A DNA stretch of 24,000 nt from Acidobacteriota bacterium (GCA_003225295.1 QHYZ01000047.1:134213-158212), one strand, 5' to 3'; numbered from the stretch's first letter, positions 1,402 through 6,203 are shown. The notes: generated by a model from the sequence alone, not told the origin. Numbers and translations are program-made.

Positions 1402-2733
1402 TCAGGCCGCTGCTTGCGCTTCCACTGCGGCGATGAAATCGACGATTCGCTCCGACCAACCGTCAACGTGCGTCCAGCCGTTGCCGTAGCTGATGCCGTG
1501 TTTGTACGGGGCCACGTTCACCGCGTACGCGCGCGGCGCCCACGCTTGCAGGATGCCGTGGTGCGACTGCTCGTCGGTAATTACGATCAGCCGATCGAGT
1601 TCGCGCCACGCCGCCTTGTCGTGGAGCTGCGTCAGCGCGCGCTTGAGGTAGGTTCCCGAGTGCGCCTGCGAGCCCACCATGGCATCGCGCAACGCGAAGC
1701 CCCGTTGCGGAGGCAATTCGATGCAAGTGTCGGAGAAGGTCGCGATGGAGAACTCCTCGGCCTTCTCGCGAAGCAGAATCGCCAGCCCTGCCGCCGCGTC
1801 CATGCGCGTGGTCTGGCCCTTTTTCGACAGCTTGTAGTTCATCGAGCCGGACACGTCCACGACAAGCCCGGTCGACCCCGCAAGCTTCGCGATTCCGGCG
1901 ATGCTCTTGAGCATGGCCTTTTCGAGAGCGCCCTCGAGCCTGGGTGCGTGGCGTGCCGCCGTCACGAAGTGCAACGGCAGCGCTCGCGCGACGCCCTGGT
2001 CCAGCCGCTCGCGCACGAGCTTGGGATCGACGCCCGATGCCAGCATCAAGCGGAGGTTTCGCAGGACGGCCATGCCGCCGAGCTTCCCTTCGCGCAGCAG
2101 TCTCTCAAAGTTCTCGCGCTTGTCCTTCCCTGTGGACAAGGCAACCTCCCAGGTATCGGGAGGTTCGAGCGTGTTCTCAACGAGCTTCTTCCAGAGCGCG
2201 GCCTGCGCTTGGTCCTTGGGCTTCGCGTGGCAGAGGACCAGCACGTCGCGGAGCTTCACCGCCGATTCGCGGTCGTACTTCGCAAGCTGGTAGGCGTCGA
2301 ACTTCGTGAACGCTCGTGCCAGACCGCGCTTTACGCCCGCGGAGAGTGGCTGCTTCTTTTCCTTCCAGTAGAGGGCCACAAACTCGCCGAGTTCATCGGC
2401 CCGCTGGATGACGTCCTCGAGCGTTTCGGCCACGAGTCGGCCGGTGCCCTTGCGGCGCGCGAGTTCACGCGTGAGTAAGAGCGGCGCGTGACGAAGCTGC
2501 ATCTTGCTGCGTGCTTCCCGCGCGAGGGCGGCCACGACTTCTGGCGTGTTCTCGGCGGCAAGCGCGGCGATCTGCTTGGCGATGTCGTTGCCCTTCTCGT
2601 AGAAGGTGTCTTCCCAGAGCAGGCATGTGAGCACGGTGCGCCGTAGCTCGCTTTTCGCGTCCACCTTCTGCGCCACTGCTCCTTCATGCGTCCGCACCGG
2701 GAACATCGGCTTCCAGACGTTCTTCTTGGCCAT
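1402..2733 (-). CDS. rsr: Ro60-like RNA-binding protein (TROVE domain + C-terminal vWA/MIDAS)
   Basis: 443 aa. Blocks alignable by eye to human Ro60: LTCLLWEDTFYE vs FLCFGSEGGTYY; KLRDVLVLCHAKP vs KDLLRLSHLKP; MAVLRNLRLMLASGV vs LTALLRNLGKMTANSV; ALPLHFVTA vs RIHPFHILIA; GLVVDVSGSMN (MIDAS DxSxS) vs LLAVDVSASMN; LIVITDEQS vs FIVFTDNET. A strong Shine-Dalgarno GGAAAGGAGG lies 7 nt before the ATG. Confidence 0.85.
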   Translation of the reverse strand: MAKKNVWKPMFPVRTHEGAVAQKVDAKSELRRTVLTCLLWEDTFYEKGNDIAKQIAALAAENTPEVVAALAREARSKMQLRHAPLLLTRELARRKGTGRLVAETLEDVIQRADELGEFVALYWKEKKQPLSAGVKRGLARAFTKFDAYQLAKYDRESAVKLRDVLVLCHAKPKDQAQAALWKKLVENTLEPPDTWEVALSTGKDKRENFERLLREGKLGGMAVLRNLRLMLASGVDPKLVRERLDQGVARALPLHFVTAARHAPRLEGALEKAMLKSIAGIAKLAGSTGLVVDVSGSMNYKLSKKGQTTRMDAAAGLAILLREKAEEFSIATFSDTCIELPPQRGFALRDAMVGSQAHSGTYLKRALTQLHDKAAWRELDRLIVITDEQSHHGILQAWAPRAYAVNVAPYKHGISYGNGWTHVDGWSERIVDFIAAVEAQAAA

Positions 2734-2790: not shown

Positions 2791-3738
2791 TTAATCGAGA
2801 AACGCTAGAAAACGCATTGCGCTCGAGCGATTCTCGGTGTTCATCAGTACACGGTGCCAGCCAATGAGCGTCACGGTTTCGTGATCGGGATGCGACACCT
2901 TCCCGCGCACGTAAACCGTTGCATCGCGCTTCATGATGCGGAAGCCCCGATTGCGCTCGCTCGCTGGCAACTTCTTGTATTCCGGAGCGGTCAATCCGTT
3001 CGGATATCTCGCTGAGACATAAACGGTGTCTCCGCCGGACCGATAACACTCTTCAGCCCAGTGAGGCTTTCCGCCGTTGCCGCGAGAGAGCGGCTCGTCC
3101 TTGAGAACGAGCAATGGATCCGCTTTTACCGCCGTGGGGACGAAAAACCATTCCCCCTGGCGGATGAAGGCTGAATTCCTCCGCTGGAAGCTCGCTTTCC
3201 GCGATATTCCAAGCAGACCTTCTCGTGTCCGTACTTCCTCTGGCTTCAGCGCGATCTTTGCGCTCGCGACGGTGGTTACTGGTTCATTTTCTGGAATTGC
3301 CGCTACGAACCAGTGCCTTTCGTCATGACCGCAGAGAAACTTCTGCTTGGCCAAAAACCGCCCCTGCTCGTCGAACTGGCGGCTGAGCAGCAGCAAATGC
3401 TTTTCCCTTGGCTGGACGTTCAGAACGACGACTTCCTGCAAGCCGCCTGGAGCGGTTCGGATCTCGAAGAATTCGCCAATTTTGTCTCGACGAATATCGA
3501 GAACCATGCGCGGGGCTTCCTCCCGAGACCCAGCCAGGTTCCCACGACCAGCTGCAGGCACGTCCTCGAAAACCTTCACGCGTACGCCCATCCGAGAAAA
3601 ATATCGGTTCAAATCACTGCCCACTGCTTTTTCCTTTCTAAAGACTGCCCGTGGCAGTCGGAATGTGTTCACCGCTCGGAGTCTTGCTCCGAACCGTTCA
3701 AAAACAGACGAGTTGACGCCACAAGATTCTTGCCCCAC
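2791..3738 (-). CDS. Uncharacterised protein; no domain recognised
   Basis: 315-aa ORF ending 57 nt upstream of rsr on the same strand. Its composition is plausible for a protein, unlike the antisense shadow ORFs. Recurrent His/acidic motifs: CGHDERHWFVAAIP, RQGEWFFVP, GGKPHWAEE, SHPDHETVTLIGWHRV. The start is a GTG at 3738, 12 nt after AAGGAG (3751-3756), so the start is uncertain. The next in-frame Met (3591) has no Shine-Dalgarno sequence. Confidence 0.6.
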   Translation of the reverse strand: MGQESCGVNSSVFERFGARLRAVNTFRLPRAVFRKEKAVGSDLNRYFSRMGVRVKVFEDVPAAGRGNLAGSREEAPRMVLDIRRDKIGEFFEIRTAPGGLQEVVVLNVQPREKHLLLLSRQFDEQGRFLAKQKFLCGHDERHWFVAAIPENEPVTTVASAKIALKPEEVRTREGLLGISRKASFQRRNSAFIRQGEWFFVPTAVKADPLLVLKDEPLSRGNGGKPHWAEECYRSGGDTVYVSARYPNGLTAPEYKKLPASERNRGFRIMKRDATVYVRGKVSHPDHETVTLIGWHRVLMNTENRSSAMRFLAFLD

Positions 3739-3767
3739 TTCATTTCTTTTCTCCTTGACCGTAACCG

Positions 3768-3901
3768 AAAAAACTCCGGACGGGAACCCCTAGCCAGGGA
3801 ACATTAGCCGCTCTATCCATTGAGCTACTGGCCCGTATCAGCCAGGTGGGAATCGAACCCGTAACCGCCCGCTCTTGAGCCGAAGTAAGCCCGTCCTGAA
3901 C
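3768..3901 (-). ncRNA. Candidate YrlA-type Y RNA (permuted tRNA-like module A)
   Basis: The minus strand reads GGG-TTCGATT-CCC (3860-3848, T-arm-like). Next comes CTGGC-tgatacgg-GCCAG (3845-3828, a loop-capped acceptor-like stem). Then TA (U8/A9 equivalents) and GCTC-AATGGATA-GAGC (3825-3810, a D-arm with A14, G18G19 and A21 equivalents). The module is enclosed by GGACGGG (3896-3890) pairing with CCCGTCC (3784-3778), with 3 further pairs beyond a mismatch. It is followed by GGAG + T6 (3773-3768). It is adjacent to and co-oriented with rsr. The ends are approximate. Confidence 0.55.
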
Positions 3902-4299
3902 CGCGTCCAACTTTGTTGTCTGCGCTCAAAGCATCCGCACAAGCGATTCTTGGTTAGCGTCACCACCGCTGGCGGCGATTTTCCCCAGCCCCGGCGCGAA
4001 CCGCCGACTGTTCCGCGGTTCGCGCCGGCCAAATTCGAGCCGGGAGGAATAATCGAGCAGAGCTGCGGAGCGGCAGCTCCGCATCGCTTAACCACGAAGT
4101 ATCTCTGCGCAGCGCCATCCCGGCAGCTCATCTGGTGGGAACAAGCGGTTCGCGTTTGTCTGAGCCACTGCTTCTTACCAAGCAAACGAGAATTGCACTC
4201 GCGACCTCCCCAGTTCATCGCCGGGGCGCTCGATAGAAGTAACGCTCACCTTCCCGACACCAGAAACTCTCGCGGCAGGAATCGGCGGTCCAGGTATTT

Positions 4300-4370
4300 C
4301 TCCGCTGCTCTATCCGTTGAGCTACGGCAGCTCGCGCCAGCGGCAGGAGTCGAACCCGCAGCCGTCGGAG
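4300..4370 (-). ncRNA. Second permuted tRNA-like module (module B); a Y RNA-like core with undefined transcript ends
   Basis: The minus strand reads CTCCG (4370-4366), acggct, then GCGGG-TTCGACT-CCTGC (4359-4343, a 5-bp T-arm with one G.U). Next is a short capped stem (4342-4325; GGC/GCC plus wobble pairs). Then TA and GCTC-AACGGATA-GAGC (4322-4307), ag, and CGGAG (4304-4300), which pairs back to CTCCG. Together these give a closed four-way junction in the same permuted order as module A. Confidence 0.5.
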
Positions 4371-4815
4371 CCCGATGTAACCCCGGCCTTCACCACGCCG
4401 CAAACTCTTCAAACTTTCCAAGCGCTTCTCTCCTCGTTTACCCGGCCCCGTGACTCCTTCACTAGCGCACACCCGTAGCGTGGCGTTTCGTTCTTCAAGG
4501 ATCCACGGCGTCAAAGAAATCCGGAAGGGATCAGCCCTCACGGTGAAACTGCATTCTTGCCTGAAGAGCACTGCGTACTCCCGAGGCCAGAACCAGCCGT
4601 GAACTTCATCGTCCCTGGACACAAATCCCGAGGCCGATAATCTTAAATCGAAACCACTTAGGCGGCTTGTTTTACAGTCGCGCGAACAAGCAGTCCACGA
4701 GACCTGATCGCCTTGGTGTTATCCCGCATTGGCTCTTGTCTTCGTGTCTCATAATCTGCTCTTCACGCTCAGCAAGGACCTCGGCTAAGCCGAGGCGTAC
4801 GACTGAGGTATCACG

Positions 4816-4844
4816 AAAGTAAACGGATTCGGAAAGTCTGTCAA
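4816..4844 (-). promoter_or_regulatory. Possible sigma70-type promoter reading toward the RNA modules
   Basis: On the minus strand: TTGACA (4844-4839), a 17-nt spacer, then TACTTT (4821-4816). An A/T-rich tract (ttttcaaaaatag) lies immediately upstream. It sits in the only visibly AT-rich patch of the window. Called from sequence pattern only. Confidence 0.2.
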
Positions 4845-4937
4845 GAACTATTTTTGAAAAGCAGCGTTTTTGGCCCATTTTTGCGGTGCTTGTTAATTTC
4901 AAAGTACTTATAGGCCGCCCGACCCACGCCGCGGTCT

Positions 4938-6203
4938 TCATTCGTACCGCAGGCAAACGATGGGGTCAAGGTTAGCAGCTAGATTCGCCGGATAGTATCC
5001 GAAGAACAGTCCCACACCGACGGAGATGGCAAACCCAATGGAGACCCACAGATAGGACAATGTCGCGGGAATTGAAGGCACGAGTGTACGCACCAGAATG
5101 GACACGCCTGCCCCGATCAGAATGCCGATCGAGCCGCCGACCAGGGTGAGCACCACGGCTTCCAGCAAAAATTGTAGGCGGACATCCGCGCGGCGCGCGC
5201 CGATGGCTTTGCGCACGCCAATTTCCTGGGTGCGCTCGGTCACGGAGATGAGCATGATATTCATTACGCCGATGCCGCCCACGAGCAGCCCGATCGAACT
5301 GATGACCGTAGTGAGAATGACCAGCGCGCCAGTGAGCTGGTTCCAAAGATTGCTGAGGAAATCCGGTGAGCTCAACTCGAAATCATTTTCCTGTCCCGCA
5401 GGGATACGGCGGAGACGGCGCAACGTCTGAATAACTTCGCCGTGCGCGGTTTCGACGTTGACGTTCTCCGGAACAGTGAATGCCATAATCAATTCTTTGG
5501 CTTCCGGGTACTGTTTCTTGAAGTTGCTGAGCGGGATGACCACAAAGATGTCCACGCCCGGGCCGAGGAACAAGCCCTGGTCATGCTCGAATACGCCGAT
5601 CACTTCGTAAGCGGCGCCATTGACGCGCACAGTCTTCCCCAGGGCGTCCGTGTTGGGGAACAGCGATTCGCTGATGGCCGCGCCCAGCACAACGACGGGC
5701 CGCGCATGCTCCTGATCGAAGGCGCTGATGAAACGGCCGCGCTCGATGCTGAACAACGGAATCGCCTCGGTGTACTCCGGCTCCGCGCCGCGTATGACAA
5801 CCTTCTCGACACTGCGGTCACCGCTGATAATGCGATTGCTGTCACCGAAGAAGAAGCCCCGCGTGCCAAACGTCGTGACGATATGCACGTCGGGTGCAGC
5901 ATTTCGGACAAACTCGGCGTAATTGTATTCAAGATACTTGCGCGTTCGAATCCGTTCTGGCAAGCGGGATGGGTCGGTGCCGAACGGGAATCGTGAAATA
6001 AAATAAGTGCGCGACCCCAGCCGCTCCACCCGGTCCTGCACAAACTTGTTCAGACCTTGAATGATGGCCGCCATGGAAATCACCGAAGATACACCGATGA
6101 CGATACCCAGCACGGTCAAGGCGGAGCGCACCTTGGACGAGCGCAACGTCTCCAGTGCGGCAAACAGATTCTCCCGCGTTTGCGCAAGCGTCATAATGGC
6201 CAT
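4938..6203 (-). CDS. ABC transporter permease, MacB-like periplasmic core + FtsX domain
   Basis: The track ORF (4938..6608) is over-extended by 135 junk codons that overlap the upstream gene. The real start is the ATG at 6203-6201 (MAIMTLAQTRENLFAALETLRSSKVRSALTVLGIVIGVSS...). It overlaps the upstream stop as TAATG. The C-terminal FtsX helices include TERTQEIGVRKAIGARRADV. Confidence 0.85.
   Translation of the reverse strand: MAIMTLAQTRENLFAALETLRSSKVRSALTVLGIVIGVSSVISMAAIIQGLNKFVQDRVERLGSRTYFISRFPFGTDPSRLPERIRTRKYLEYNYAEFVRNAAPDVHIVTTFGTRGFFFGDSNRIISGDRSVEKVVIRGAEPEYTEAIPLFSIERGRFISAFDQEHARPVVVLGAAISESLFPNTDALGKTVRVNGAAYEVIGVFEHDQGLFLGPGVDIFVVIPLSNFKKQYPEAKELIMAFTVPENVNVETAHGEVIQTLRRLRRIPAGQENDFELSSPDFLSNLWNQLTGALVILTTVISSIGLLVGGIGVMNIMLISVTERTQEIGVRKAIGARRADVRLQFLLEAVVLTLVGGSIGILIGAGVSILVRTLVPSIPATLSYLWVSIGFAISVGVGLFFGYYPANLAANLDPIVCLRYE

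Follow-up and report, generated by a model that had tools for sequence, protein, structure and literature searches.

On its minus strand, the 24,000-nucleotide (nt) stretch of Acidobacteriota bacterium DNA analyzed here (GCA_003225295.1 QHYZ01000047.1:134213-158212; hereafter the window) carries a gene for a TROVE/Ro60-like protein and, upstream of that gene, an array of Y-RNA-like units. One of these units contains module B, which an earlier interpretation made from the DNA alone (the sequence-only reading) had described as the second and cleaner of two permuted cloverleaves, A and B, tied to the TROVE/rsr locus. The TROVE gene lies on the strand of the unit, 1.5 kb downstream of it (unit end 4272, start of the open reading frame (ORF) 2733). 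We propose that module B very probably forms the tRNA-like core of a bacterial Y RNA, 130 nt long and belonging to the YrlA class, that is encoded at 4401-4272 (minus strand). The YrlA class is already established, and module B is no new kind of element; its differences from known members are differences of degree.

Anatomy of unit B

For comparison we used 80 loci, taken from species-representative genomes of the Acidobacteriota and a few other phyla, each of which encodes a relative (46-94% identity) of the window's TROVE protein. Forty module B orthologues were found in them by pattern and aligned without reference to structure, and from these a covariance model, R1, was built and applied at an expectation value (E) cut-off of E <= 0.01. 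The boundaries of the full unit, 130 nt in length, were taken from the conserved outer helices that flank the cores in related loci. The parts of the unit are as follows.

4272-4401, minus strand: complete unit B, terminal helices plus tRNA-like domain; R1 115.4 bits, E 1e-22, full-length; 40 orthologues with identical ends
4393-4401, minus strand: helix 1, 5' strand GCGGCG, bulged U4395, GG; partner 4272-4279
4272-4279, minus strand: helix 1, 3' strand CC-UGCCGC; partner 4393-4401
4387-4394, minus strand: GGUGAAGG, 5'-strand motif presumed to contact Ro60; 32 of 40 orthologues have it
4381-4388, minus strand: helix 2, 5' strand GGC-C-GGGG; partner 4287-4294
4287-4294, minus strand: helix 2, 3' strand CCUG-G-ACC; partner 4381-4388
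4377-4380, minus strand: UUAC (YUAY motif), separating helix 2 from the tRNA-like domain; UUAC in 31 of 40 orthologues
4366-4370, minus strand: closing (anticodon-stem-like) stem, 5' strand CUCCG; partner 4300-4304
4300-4304, minus strand: closing stem, 3' strand CGGAG; seen in the orthologue pairing and in the ARAGORN drawing of an un-permuted construct
4360-4364, minus strand: variable-loop mimic CGGCU, tRNA positions 44-48, U4360 being position 48; G45, G46 and Y48 conserved
4343-4359, minus strand: T arm GCGGG-UUCGACU-CCUGC; stem 4359-4355/4347-4343, loop 4354-4348
4325-4342, minus strand: acceptor-stem mimic of seven positions, CGCUGGC/GCUGCCG, capped by a GCGA tetraloop; seven conserved pairs
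4307-4324, minus strand: U8-A9 (4324-4323), then the D arm GCUC-AACGGAUA-GAGC, with GCUC at 4322-4319, AACGGAUA at 4318-4311 and GAGC at 4310-4307; A4317 is position 15

The core of the module runs from 4370 to 4300, and every element listed for it by the sequence-only reading is present there on the minus strand: the closing stem, the 6-nt linker, the T arm, UA and the D arm. The linker ACGGCU (4365-4360) corresponds to A43 followed by a 5-nt variable loop (tRNA positions 44-48). The capped stem between the T and D arms is likewise found, at 4342-4325, but it had been taken to be short, and is in fact a full seven-position mimic of an acceptor stem with a GCGA loop. After the closing stem the four-way junction leads in order to the T arm, the GNRA-capped acceptor mimic of 7 base pairs (bp) and the D arm. 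The nucleotides that make tertiary contacts in tRNA are kept: U8, A14, R15, G18, G19, A21, G46, Y48, U54, U55, C56 and A58. Module B is a circularly permuted form of tRNA without an anticodon loop or free ends.

Outside this domain, helix 1 consists of 6 bp, the bulged U and 2 bp, with a G4396.U4277 wobble in the window copy, and is followed by an asymmetric internal loop, whose 5' strand carries GGUGAAGG and whose 3' strand carries GAUU, and then by helix 2. An outer helix between 4387-4381 and 4226-4220, which had been suggested to delimit a unit of roughly 170 nt, was rejected: 4387-4381 belongs to helix 2 and its partner is 4294-4287, whereas 4226-4220 lies inside the next unit, C. The relation between the two modules is as had been described, since the core of module A has the same order of elements, lies 497 nt downstream on the minus strand, and has a D loop, AAUGGAUA, that is one base off the AACGGAUA of module B.

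Covariation and conservation in related genomes

RNAalifold, applied to the 40 orthologues, recovered helix 1, helix 2, the T arm, the 7-bp acceptor-like stem and the D arm; the closing stem was added to this structure before pairs were counted, giving 35 pairs in total. Over these pairs, 96.9% of alignment cells are paired, as compared with 32-48% after a shift of the partners by one to three columns, and both sides are changed in 112 cells, as compared with 3-13 in the slid controls. None of 500 shuffles reached the observed covariation score.

Helix 1 is paired in 99.7% of cells, with compensation between CG and UA (6) at pair 2, and helix 2 in 97.5%, with exchanges of GC and AU. The four pairs counted for the closing stem show GC/AU (17 of 38 cells) and UA/AU changes. 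In the T arm, 99% of cells are paired, with CG/UA (10) and GC/AU (15) exchanges, and the loop reads UUCRANU in all 40 orthologues. For the acceptor mimic the value is 95.7%, with both-side changes at four of the seven pairs (AU/GC, 16; GC/AU, 18), and its loop is of the GNRA type in 36 of the 40: GAAA 25, GCAA 4, GCGA 3, GUAA 2, GAGA 1 and GGAA 1. U8-A9 and the D stem show little or no variation, and A14, R15, G18, G19 and A21 are present. The Levitt pair 15:48 covaries (G:C 18, A:U 16, other 6; n = 40), the window copy having A4317:U4360.

The 150 best units, when aligned to R1, were paired in 95.5% of cells (35-48% when slid) and had 917 both-side-changed cells (56-104 when slid), distributed over 33 of the 35 pairs and, within helix 1, over seven of its eight, counts that are somewhat inflated toward the structure because this alignment was fitted to R1. 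The comparative analysis with a covariance model, which the sequence-only reading had proposed as a check, thus finds the pairings preserved with compensatory changes. Loss of module B or of its pairings from relatives with the same locus, named by that reading as evidence that would speak against it, is not what we see: 40 orthologues were recovered by pattern, and 250 units occur in 73 of the 80 loci.

R1 yielded 253 matches in the window and the 80 loci (three in the window and 250 in the loci), all on the strand of the TROVE gene. All 250 locus matches lie upstream of that gene, and the 73 loci that have them carry one to six units each. By a simple T-loop/D-arm pattern, most loci have one to four modules upstream of the TROVE gene, with none on the opposite strand. 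An independent set of 14 IMG/VR loci, all on viral contigs with TROVE homologues, gave 25 more R1 matches, again all on the TROVE strand, 23 of them upstream and two downstream of the gene. With the orthologues and R1 in hand, the description of module B as a second, cleaner permuted cloverleaf belonging to the TROVE/rsr locus is upheld.

The same data bear on whether module B could be a chance resemblance in G+C-rich intergenic DNA, or a piece of coding sequence. Two mechanical ORFs overlap it (4622-4215, minus strand, 135 amino acids (aa); 3875-4453, plus strand, 192 aa), and its folding energy is unexceptional. Nevertheless, the window contains two matches of a combined T-loop/D-arm pattern, at 4356-4307 and 3859-3810 (each on the minus strand), as compared with 0.00 in 100 dinucleotide-preserving shuffles; the same-strand 135-aa ORF, the one of the two that was scanned, has no Pfam match; the orthologues differ in length (111-140 nt), with all three classes modulo 3 represented; and substitutions across the helices are compensatory. 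By these comparative data chance or coding is already refuted, and we assign it next to no probability. The shuffles, together with helices kept by compensatory change, also agree with the earlier argument that two copies of so unusual a layout are neither chance nor decayed tRNA genes.

Relationship to YrlA and other RNAs

YrlA genes share the strand of Ro60 and lie no more than 4 kb from it, and the RNAs have a 5' Ro60 motif and a YUAY sequence before a tRNA-like domain, in which T arm, acceptor-like stem-loop and D arm follow in that order and tRNA tertiary contacts are kept (PMC4201824). The motif near the 5' end that is presumed to contact Ro60 is GNCGAAN0-1G, and compensation between G:C and A:U at the Levitt pair 15:48 was reported by Chen et al. 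2014 (PMC4201824). RNAs of this architecture are excised and Rsr-bound in three species (PMC4201824), and a crystal structure is available for YrlA of Salmonella Typhimurium (PDB 6CU1; Wang et al. 2018, bioRxiv 10.1101/312249).

Module B and all 250 units of the 73 loci lie at most 4 kb from a TROVE/Ro60 gene and on its strand. In module B the domain order is that of YrlA, with near-invariant T and D arms; the tertiary contacts are kept, including the compensatory G15:C48 and A15:U48; UUAC (4380-4377) stands before the V region; and a terminal helix with a conserved bulge, as in Y RNAs generally, joins the ends of the unit (4401-4393 with 4279-4272, U4395). Since the layout is identical to that of YrlA (PMC4201824), the permuted cloverleaf of the sequence-only reading is a rediscovery of YrlA. 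Rfam at gathering thresholds finds nothing in the window, and at relaxed thresholds both modules have YrlA (RF02553) as their best-matching Rfam family, over 114 of 114 model positions (A, 3893-3780, 33.5 bits, E 4e-5; B, 4386-4273, 27.3 bits, E 0.0027). A literature text search on Ro60, Y RNAs and Acidobacteria returned no paper; the supplementary tables of Chen et al. 2014 were outside its scope.

Several observations weigh against this assignment. Both Rfam scores fall below the gathering score of 69, at which the YrlA model finds none of the orthologues in 11 related loci; by that annotation rule B is not a member, and the rule's threshold reflects the RF02553 seed sequences, not biology. 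GGUGAAGG (4394-4387) deviates from the published GNCGAAN0-1G by U for C, the exact motif being found in 17 of the 250 units and the U variant in 117, while the motif class UGGYGNRGN is common to nearly all. In the window copy, helix 2 has two non-standard pairs in the R1 register and the acceptor mimic has one C.C mismatch, as well as two G.U pairs. The TROVE protein, of 443 aa, is shorter than a typical Rsr and scores 27.7 bits with the NCBIfam Rsr equivalog, for which the cut-off is 900, and the pair counts of the 150-unit alignment carry the inflation mentioned above. Finally, single-sequence folding energy over several spans is no better than that of shuffles (z +0.9 to -0.7). The minimum-free-energy fold mispairs the junction, and single-sequence folding is uninformative at such G+C richness; as the folding energy is not exceptional, the case for module B is comparative, not thermodynamic.

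The likeness of module B to tRNA was tested by putting its parts back in silico into the usual order of a tRNA and adding a synthetic anticodon loop of 7 nt. ARAGORN calls a tRNA in this construct and nothing in the native sequence. A rival reading is that the module is a remnant of real tRNA genes, whether a tandem-tRNA artefact (the T half of one gene and the D half of the next), a decayed pseudogene or a permuted gene maturing to a working tRNA. Its T and D arms cannot be told from those of a tRNA. There is a weak Rfam tRNA match at 4401-4335 (18 bits, gathering score 29), the tRNA model passes its threshold in related loci by bridging two adjacent units, and the pattern search also matched genuine tandem tRNAs in one locus (L073; loci are designated by L and a number). 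However, ARAGORN finds 0 tRNA and 0 tmRNA (transfer-messenger RNA) genes in the whole window, and Rfam gives no tmRNA match there. In place of an anticodon loop, the anticodon-like stem continues into two conserved helices that join the unit's own ends, and a conserved GNRA tetraloop, GCGA in the window copy, closes the acceptor mimic. Moreover, all six helices are kept with compensatory changes in the 40 orthologues, unlike in decay, and each unit goes with a TROVE gene and lies on that gene's strand. This explanation is already largely refuted and we consider it very improbable. Circularly permuted tRNA genes, such as those of the red alga Cyanidioschyzon, and two-piece tmRNA have in common with B the permuted order of tRNA elements, and they mature to functional RNA with free acceptor ends, whereas B is without an anticodon loop or a tag reading frame and its acceptor mimic is loop-closed.

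Among known members of the class, YrlA of Salmonella Typhimurium resembles B in its position beside a Ro60 orthologue on the same strand, in 5' and 3' ends that form the Ro-binding stem, in the order of V region, T arm, capped acceptor-like stem and D arm, and in its tRNA tertiary nucleotides, including the covarying Levitt pair, and the YUAY ahead of the tRNA-like domain. B differs from it in the 5' motif (GGUGAAGG, not GNCGAAN0-1G) and in its Rfam score (27.3 vs 69), and also in the full 7-bp, GNRA-capped acceptor mimic, that of Salmonella having been called too short for RNase P. The B locus is without nearby rtcBA or rtcR and has housekeeping neighbors instead, and the clade's terminal helix, with its bulged U, is conserved on both strands, a feature noted for Deinococcus and animals but not for Salmonella or Mycobacterium smegmatis (PMC4201824).

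M. smegmatis YrlA is, like B, encoded upstream of rsr and has a 7-bp acceptor mimic. It is made with YrlB from a single precursor, and is the only YrlA documented to be cut by RNase P and to receive CCA, its acceptor stem being of 7 bp (PMC4201824); in contrast, most orthologues here have a GAAA loop and no encoded C at position 74. Yrn1 and Yrn2 of Deinococcus radiodurans and the metazoan Y RNAs also have a bulged terminal helix conserved on both strands, which is the Ro60 site there, and, as in the clade of B, there are several Y RNAs per genome; in Deinococcus they come from a polycistronic precursor, Yrn2-tRNA-Asp-Yrn1 (PMC4201824). Yrn1 differs in that its T-like and D-like arms are oppositely oriented relative to the ends, and the metazoan RNAs have no tRNA-like domain.

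In Thermus phage phiLo, which encodes Yrl1/Yrl2 together with phiRo60, as at the B locus, Y-RNA-like RNAs are encoded just upstream of the Ro60 gene, and phiLo Ro60 binds them (PDB 9KOP, 9L5Y; NAR 2025; PMC12135203). The phiLo RNAs were chosen by a CGAA motif and a stem-bulge-stem shape, and the term 'tRNA-like' has 0 occurrences in the text of the paper (PMC12135203).

The array, its neighbors and a proposed mode of action

The window array comprises five tandem Y-RNA-like units, E, B, C, D and A, upstream of the TROVE gene. Besides unit B, the features of the locus are as follows.

1402-2733, minus strand: TROVE/Ro60-like gene, 443 aa, presumed protein partner; Pfam TROVE 52.8 bits (cut-off 23)
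4521-4618 (approximate), minus strand: unit E, degenerate first unit of the array; seen by alignment with L004, L006, L009, L014 and L007
4132-4263, minus strand: unit C, 8 nt downstream of B; R1 28.5 bits, E 2e-4; type conserved at the equivalent array position
4040-4123, minus strand: unit D, short hairpin unit 8 nt downstream of C; R1 28.1 bits, E 2.5e-4
3777-3909, minus strand: unit A (module A), tRNA-like Y RNA; R1 47.5 bits, Rfam YrlA 33.5 bits

A filter-free R1 scan of the window gained the fourth of these units, and the best non-Y match in it reached only 13.9 bits. Unit C has the same terminal helices and T-like and acceptor-like hairpins but no D arm, and unit D is of a CCGGGA type that is common in related arrays; both have terminal helices and UGGYG.AGG and UUCC motifs in common with the family. 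Unit E, which R1 missed, has several unpaired substitutions in helix 1, the E type of relatives being CCCGGGA-U-GG...UCCUCCCGG. When units are typed by their helix-1 sequence, the order E-B-(G)-(C)-D-A is conserved across related loci, with up to six units (for example L011 4558-5572, L033 4331-5549 and L080 4550-5585). Gaps between units are 7-10 nt in 57 of 177 cases, about a third, and the short spacers have the form AARRNNUUU.

Helix 1 appears to reach 2 bp into the spacer, where 77% of cells are paired as compared with about 50% in a shifted control. Unit A of the window is weaker than its orthologues (R1 47.5 vs 67-93 bits): its 5' motif is off the family consensus, and its T stem, ACGGG/CCCAC, has two mismatches where relatives have GUGGG/CCCAC. 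The 130-nt gap between D and A contains a long G+C-rich hairpin without a U-tract, GGCCGGCGCGAACCGC...GCGGUUCGCGCCGG (4030-3991, minus strand).

The only U-tract, at 3773-3768, comes just after unit A, so that, as the sequence-only reading had remarked, none adjoins B. A promoter and terminator scan of 3500-5000 found no sigma-70-like site, and two terminator-like sites, not exceeding the shuffles and neither of them bounding B. The anatomy, with 8 nt from B to the next unit and no internal promoter-like or terminator-like sites, fits the earlier suggestion that B is part of a longer RNA or is released by processing. Just upstream of E, the block 4697-4669 (minus strand) is conserved in close relatives and contains TGGACT-17 nt-TAAAAC, a possible sigma-70-like promoter of the array, which went unreported in the scan, since its second hexamer does not end in T. 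A sigma-54 promoter upstream of the array, suspected by eye, was rejected, as the block lacks a -12 GC element.

This organization would also suit a cis-acting part of the rsr transcript, one that would serve the downstream ORF and the TROVE mRNA as leader, processing signal or stability element, in place of free Ro60-bound RNAs. The units stand upstream of protein genes on the same strand, with very short spacers and no promoter-like or terminator-like site between them, and the U-tract follows only the last unit. On the other hand, every unit is self-closing through its own covarying terminal helix, and the architecture equals that of the RNAs that are excised and Rsr-bound in three species (PMC4201824). 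The distance from array to TROVE gene varies from about 40 nt to more than 2 kb across loci, sometimes with other genes in between, which is hard to reconcile with a leader acting on TROVE mRNA. A cis-acting role of this kind is, in our estimation, improbable, and we continue with the reading of B as a Y RNA.

The presumed protein partner matches the Ro60-type vWA model at 26.8 bits, just under the cut-off of 27.7. Among solved structures the nearest to it is phiLo Ro60, from a Thermus phage (PDB 9KOP/9L5Y, E 8e-28), not Deinococcus Rsr or Xenopus Ro60, and it may belong to a Ro60 subfamily of its own. Soil metagenomes contain the protein in abundance, with an assignment to Acidobacteriota, Candidatus Acidoferrum/Acidoferrales. 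Elsewhere the window has ordinary chromosomal housekeeping genes (rho, cmk, mutL, aspS, hisS, secA and ABC permeases), and none of the window genes near the locus is rtcBA or rtcR.

Between unit A and the TROVE gene there is a conserved hypothetical ORF of 315 codons (3738-2791, minus strand), with a likely GTG start at 3624; it has 277 aa in most homologues, of which there are more than 6,700 in metagenomes, and is found at that place in 16 of the 80 loci. It matches no Pfam, NCBIfam or PADLOC family, and its AlphaFold model is beta-rich and mediocre (predicted local distance difference test 71), with nothing at E < 0.1 in a Foldseek search against the PDB. Directly after unit A, at 3743-3669 (minus strand), a 24-codon ORF, MKWGKNLVASTRLFLNGSEQDSER, has a strong AAGGAG ribosome-binding site. 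Peptides like MKWGKNLVASTRLFLNGSEQDSER follow the A-type unit in L005 and L002, and L007, L012, L014 and L022 have a different gene of about 85 codons there.

Viral or prophage-like IMG/VR contigs (L082-L092) encode TROVE homologues of 37-62% identity, mostly with one to four same-strand units just upstream, among them L085 3378-3513 (103 bits) and L084 2616-2754 (96 bits). A BLASTN search of unit B against phage genomes gave a single weak match, to tandem tRNA genes of a mycobacteriophage.

From the anatomy and the known systems we propose the following mode of action: (i) unit B would be transcribed from the minus strand within a polycistronic precursor, E-B-C-D-A, and excised by cuts inside the 8-nt spacers; (ii) the TROVE (Ro60) protein probably binds the terminal helix and the 5'-strand motif; and (iii) the L-shaped tRNA-like domain probably serves as a stable handle that recruits another factor, or protects the RNA. 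In Deinococcus and Salmonella the effector of the tRNA-like domain is PNPase. The tRNA enzymes TruB and Dus would be expected to modify the domain. RNase P may cleave the acceptor mimic, a prediction that we make because the mimic is a full 7 bp, by likeness to M. smegmatis YrlA.

A more far-reaching version, which we put forward as speculation and think unlikely, is that the clade's Ro60 locus encodes up to six different Y RNAs (E-B-G-C-D-A) in one polycistron, conserved and collinear, with fixed spacers of 7-10 nt, in which the YrlA-type units B and G, with their 7-bp GNRA-capped acceptors, would be cut by RNase P and CCA-tailed to give two-piece tRNA-like Y RNAs that might be aminoacylated. 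The set would then form a panel of adaptors linking one Ro60 to different effectors, possibly with the 277-aa protein among them.

Since the YrlA class was established before, the finding does not alter the known kinds of RNA. It does affect annotation, as standard procedures miss these RNAs in very abundant soil bacteria (Candidatus Acidoferrum/Acidoferrales). The Rfam tRNA model also makes spurious calls of 131-138 nt at 33-41 bits (threshold 29), in L016 5313-5443, L004 1576-1708 and L080 4835-4972, by fusing the acceptor/D-arm half of a Y RNA unit with the T-arm half of the unit that follows it, an artefact that could pass for intron-containing tRNA genes. The alignment and R1 would correct both the missed Y RNAs and the spurious tRNA calls. 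The clade, which has at least 250 units belonging to five or six conserved paralogue types and shows clear covariation, is a large natural set for separating the parts of a Y RNA that bind Ro60 from those that bind an effector. The main value of the finding lies in two points: an abundant lineage of soil bacteria has highly regular Y RNA arrays, up to six units long, that are unannotated, and the prediction concerning RNase P is one that can be put to the test.

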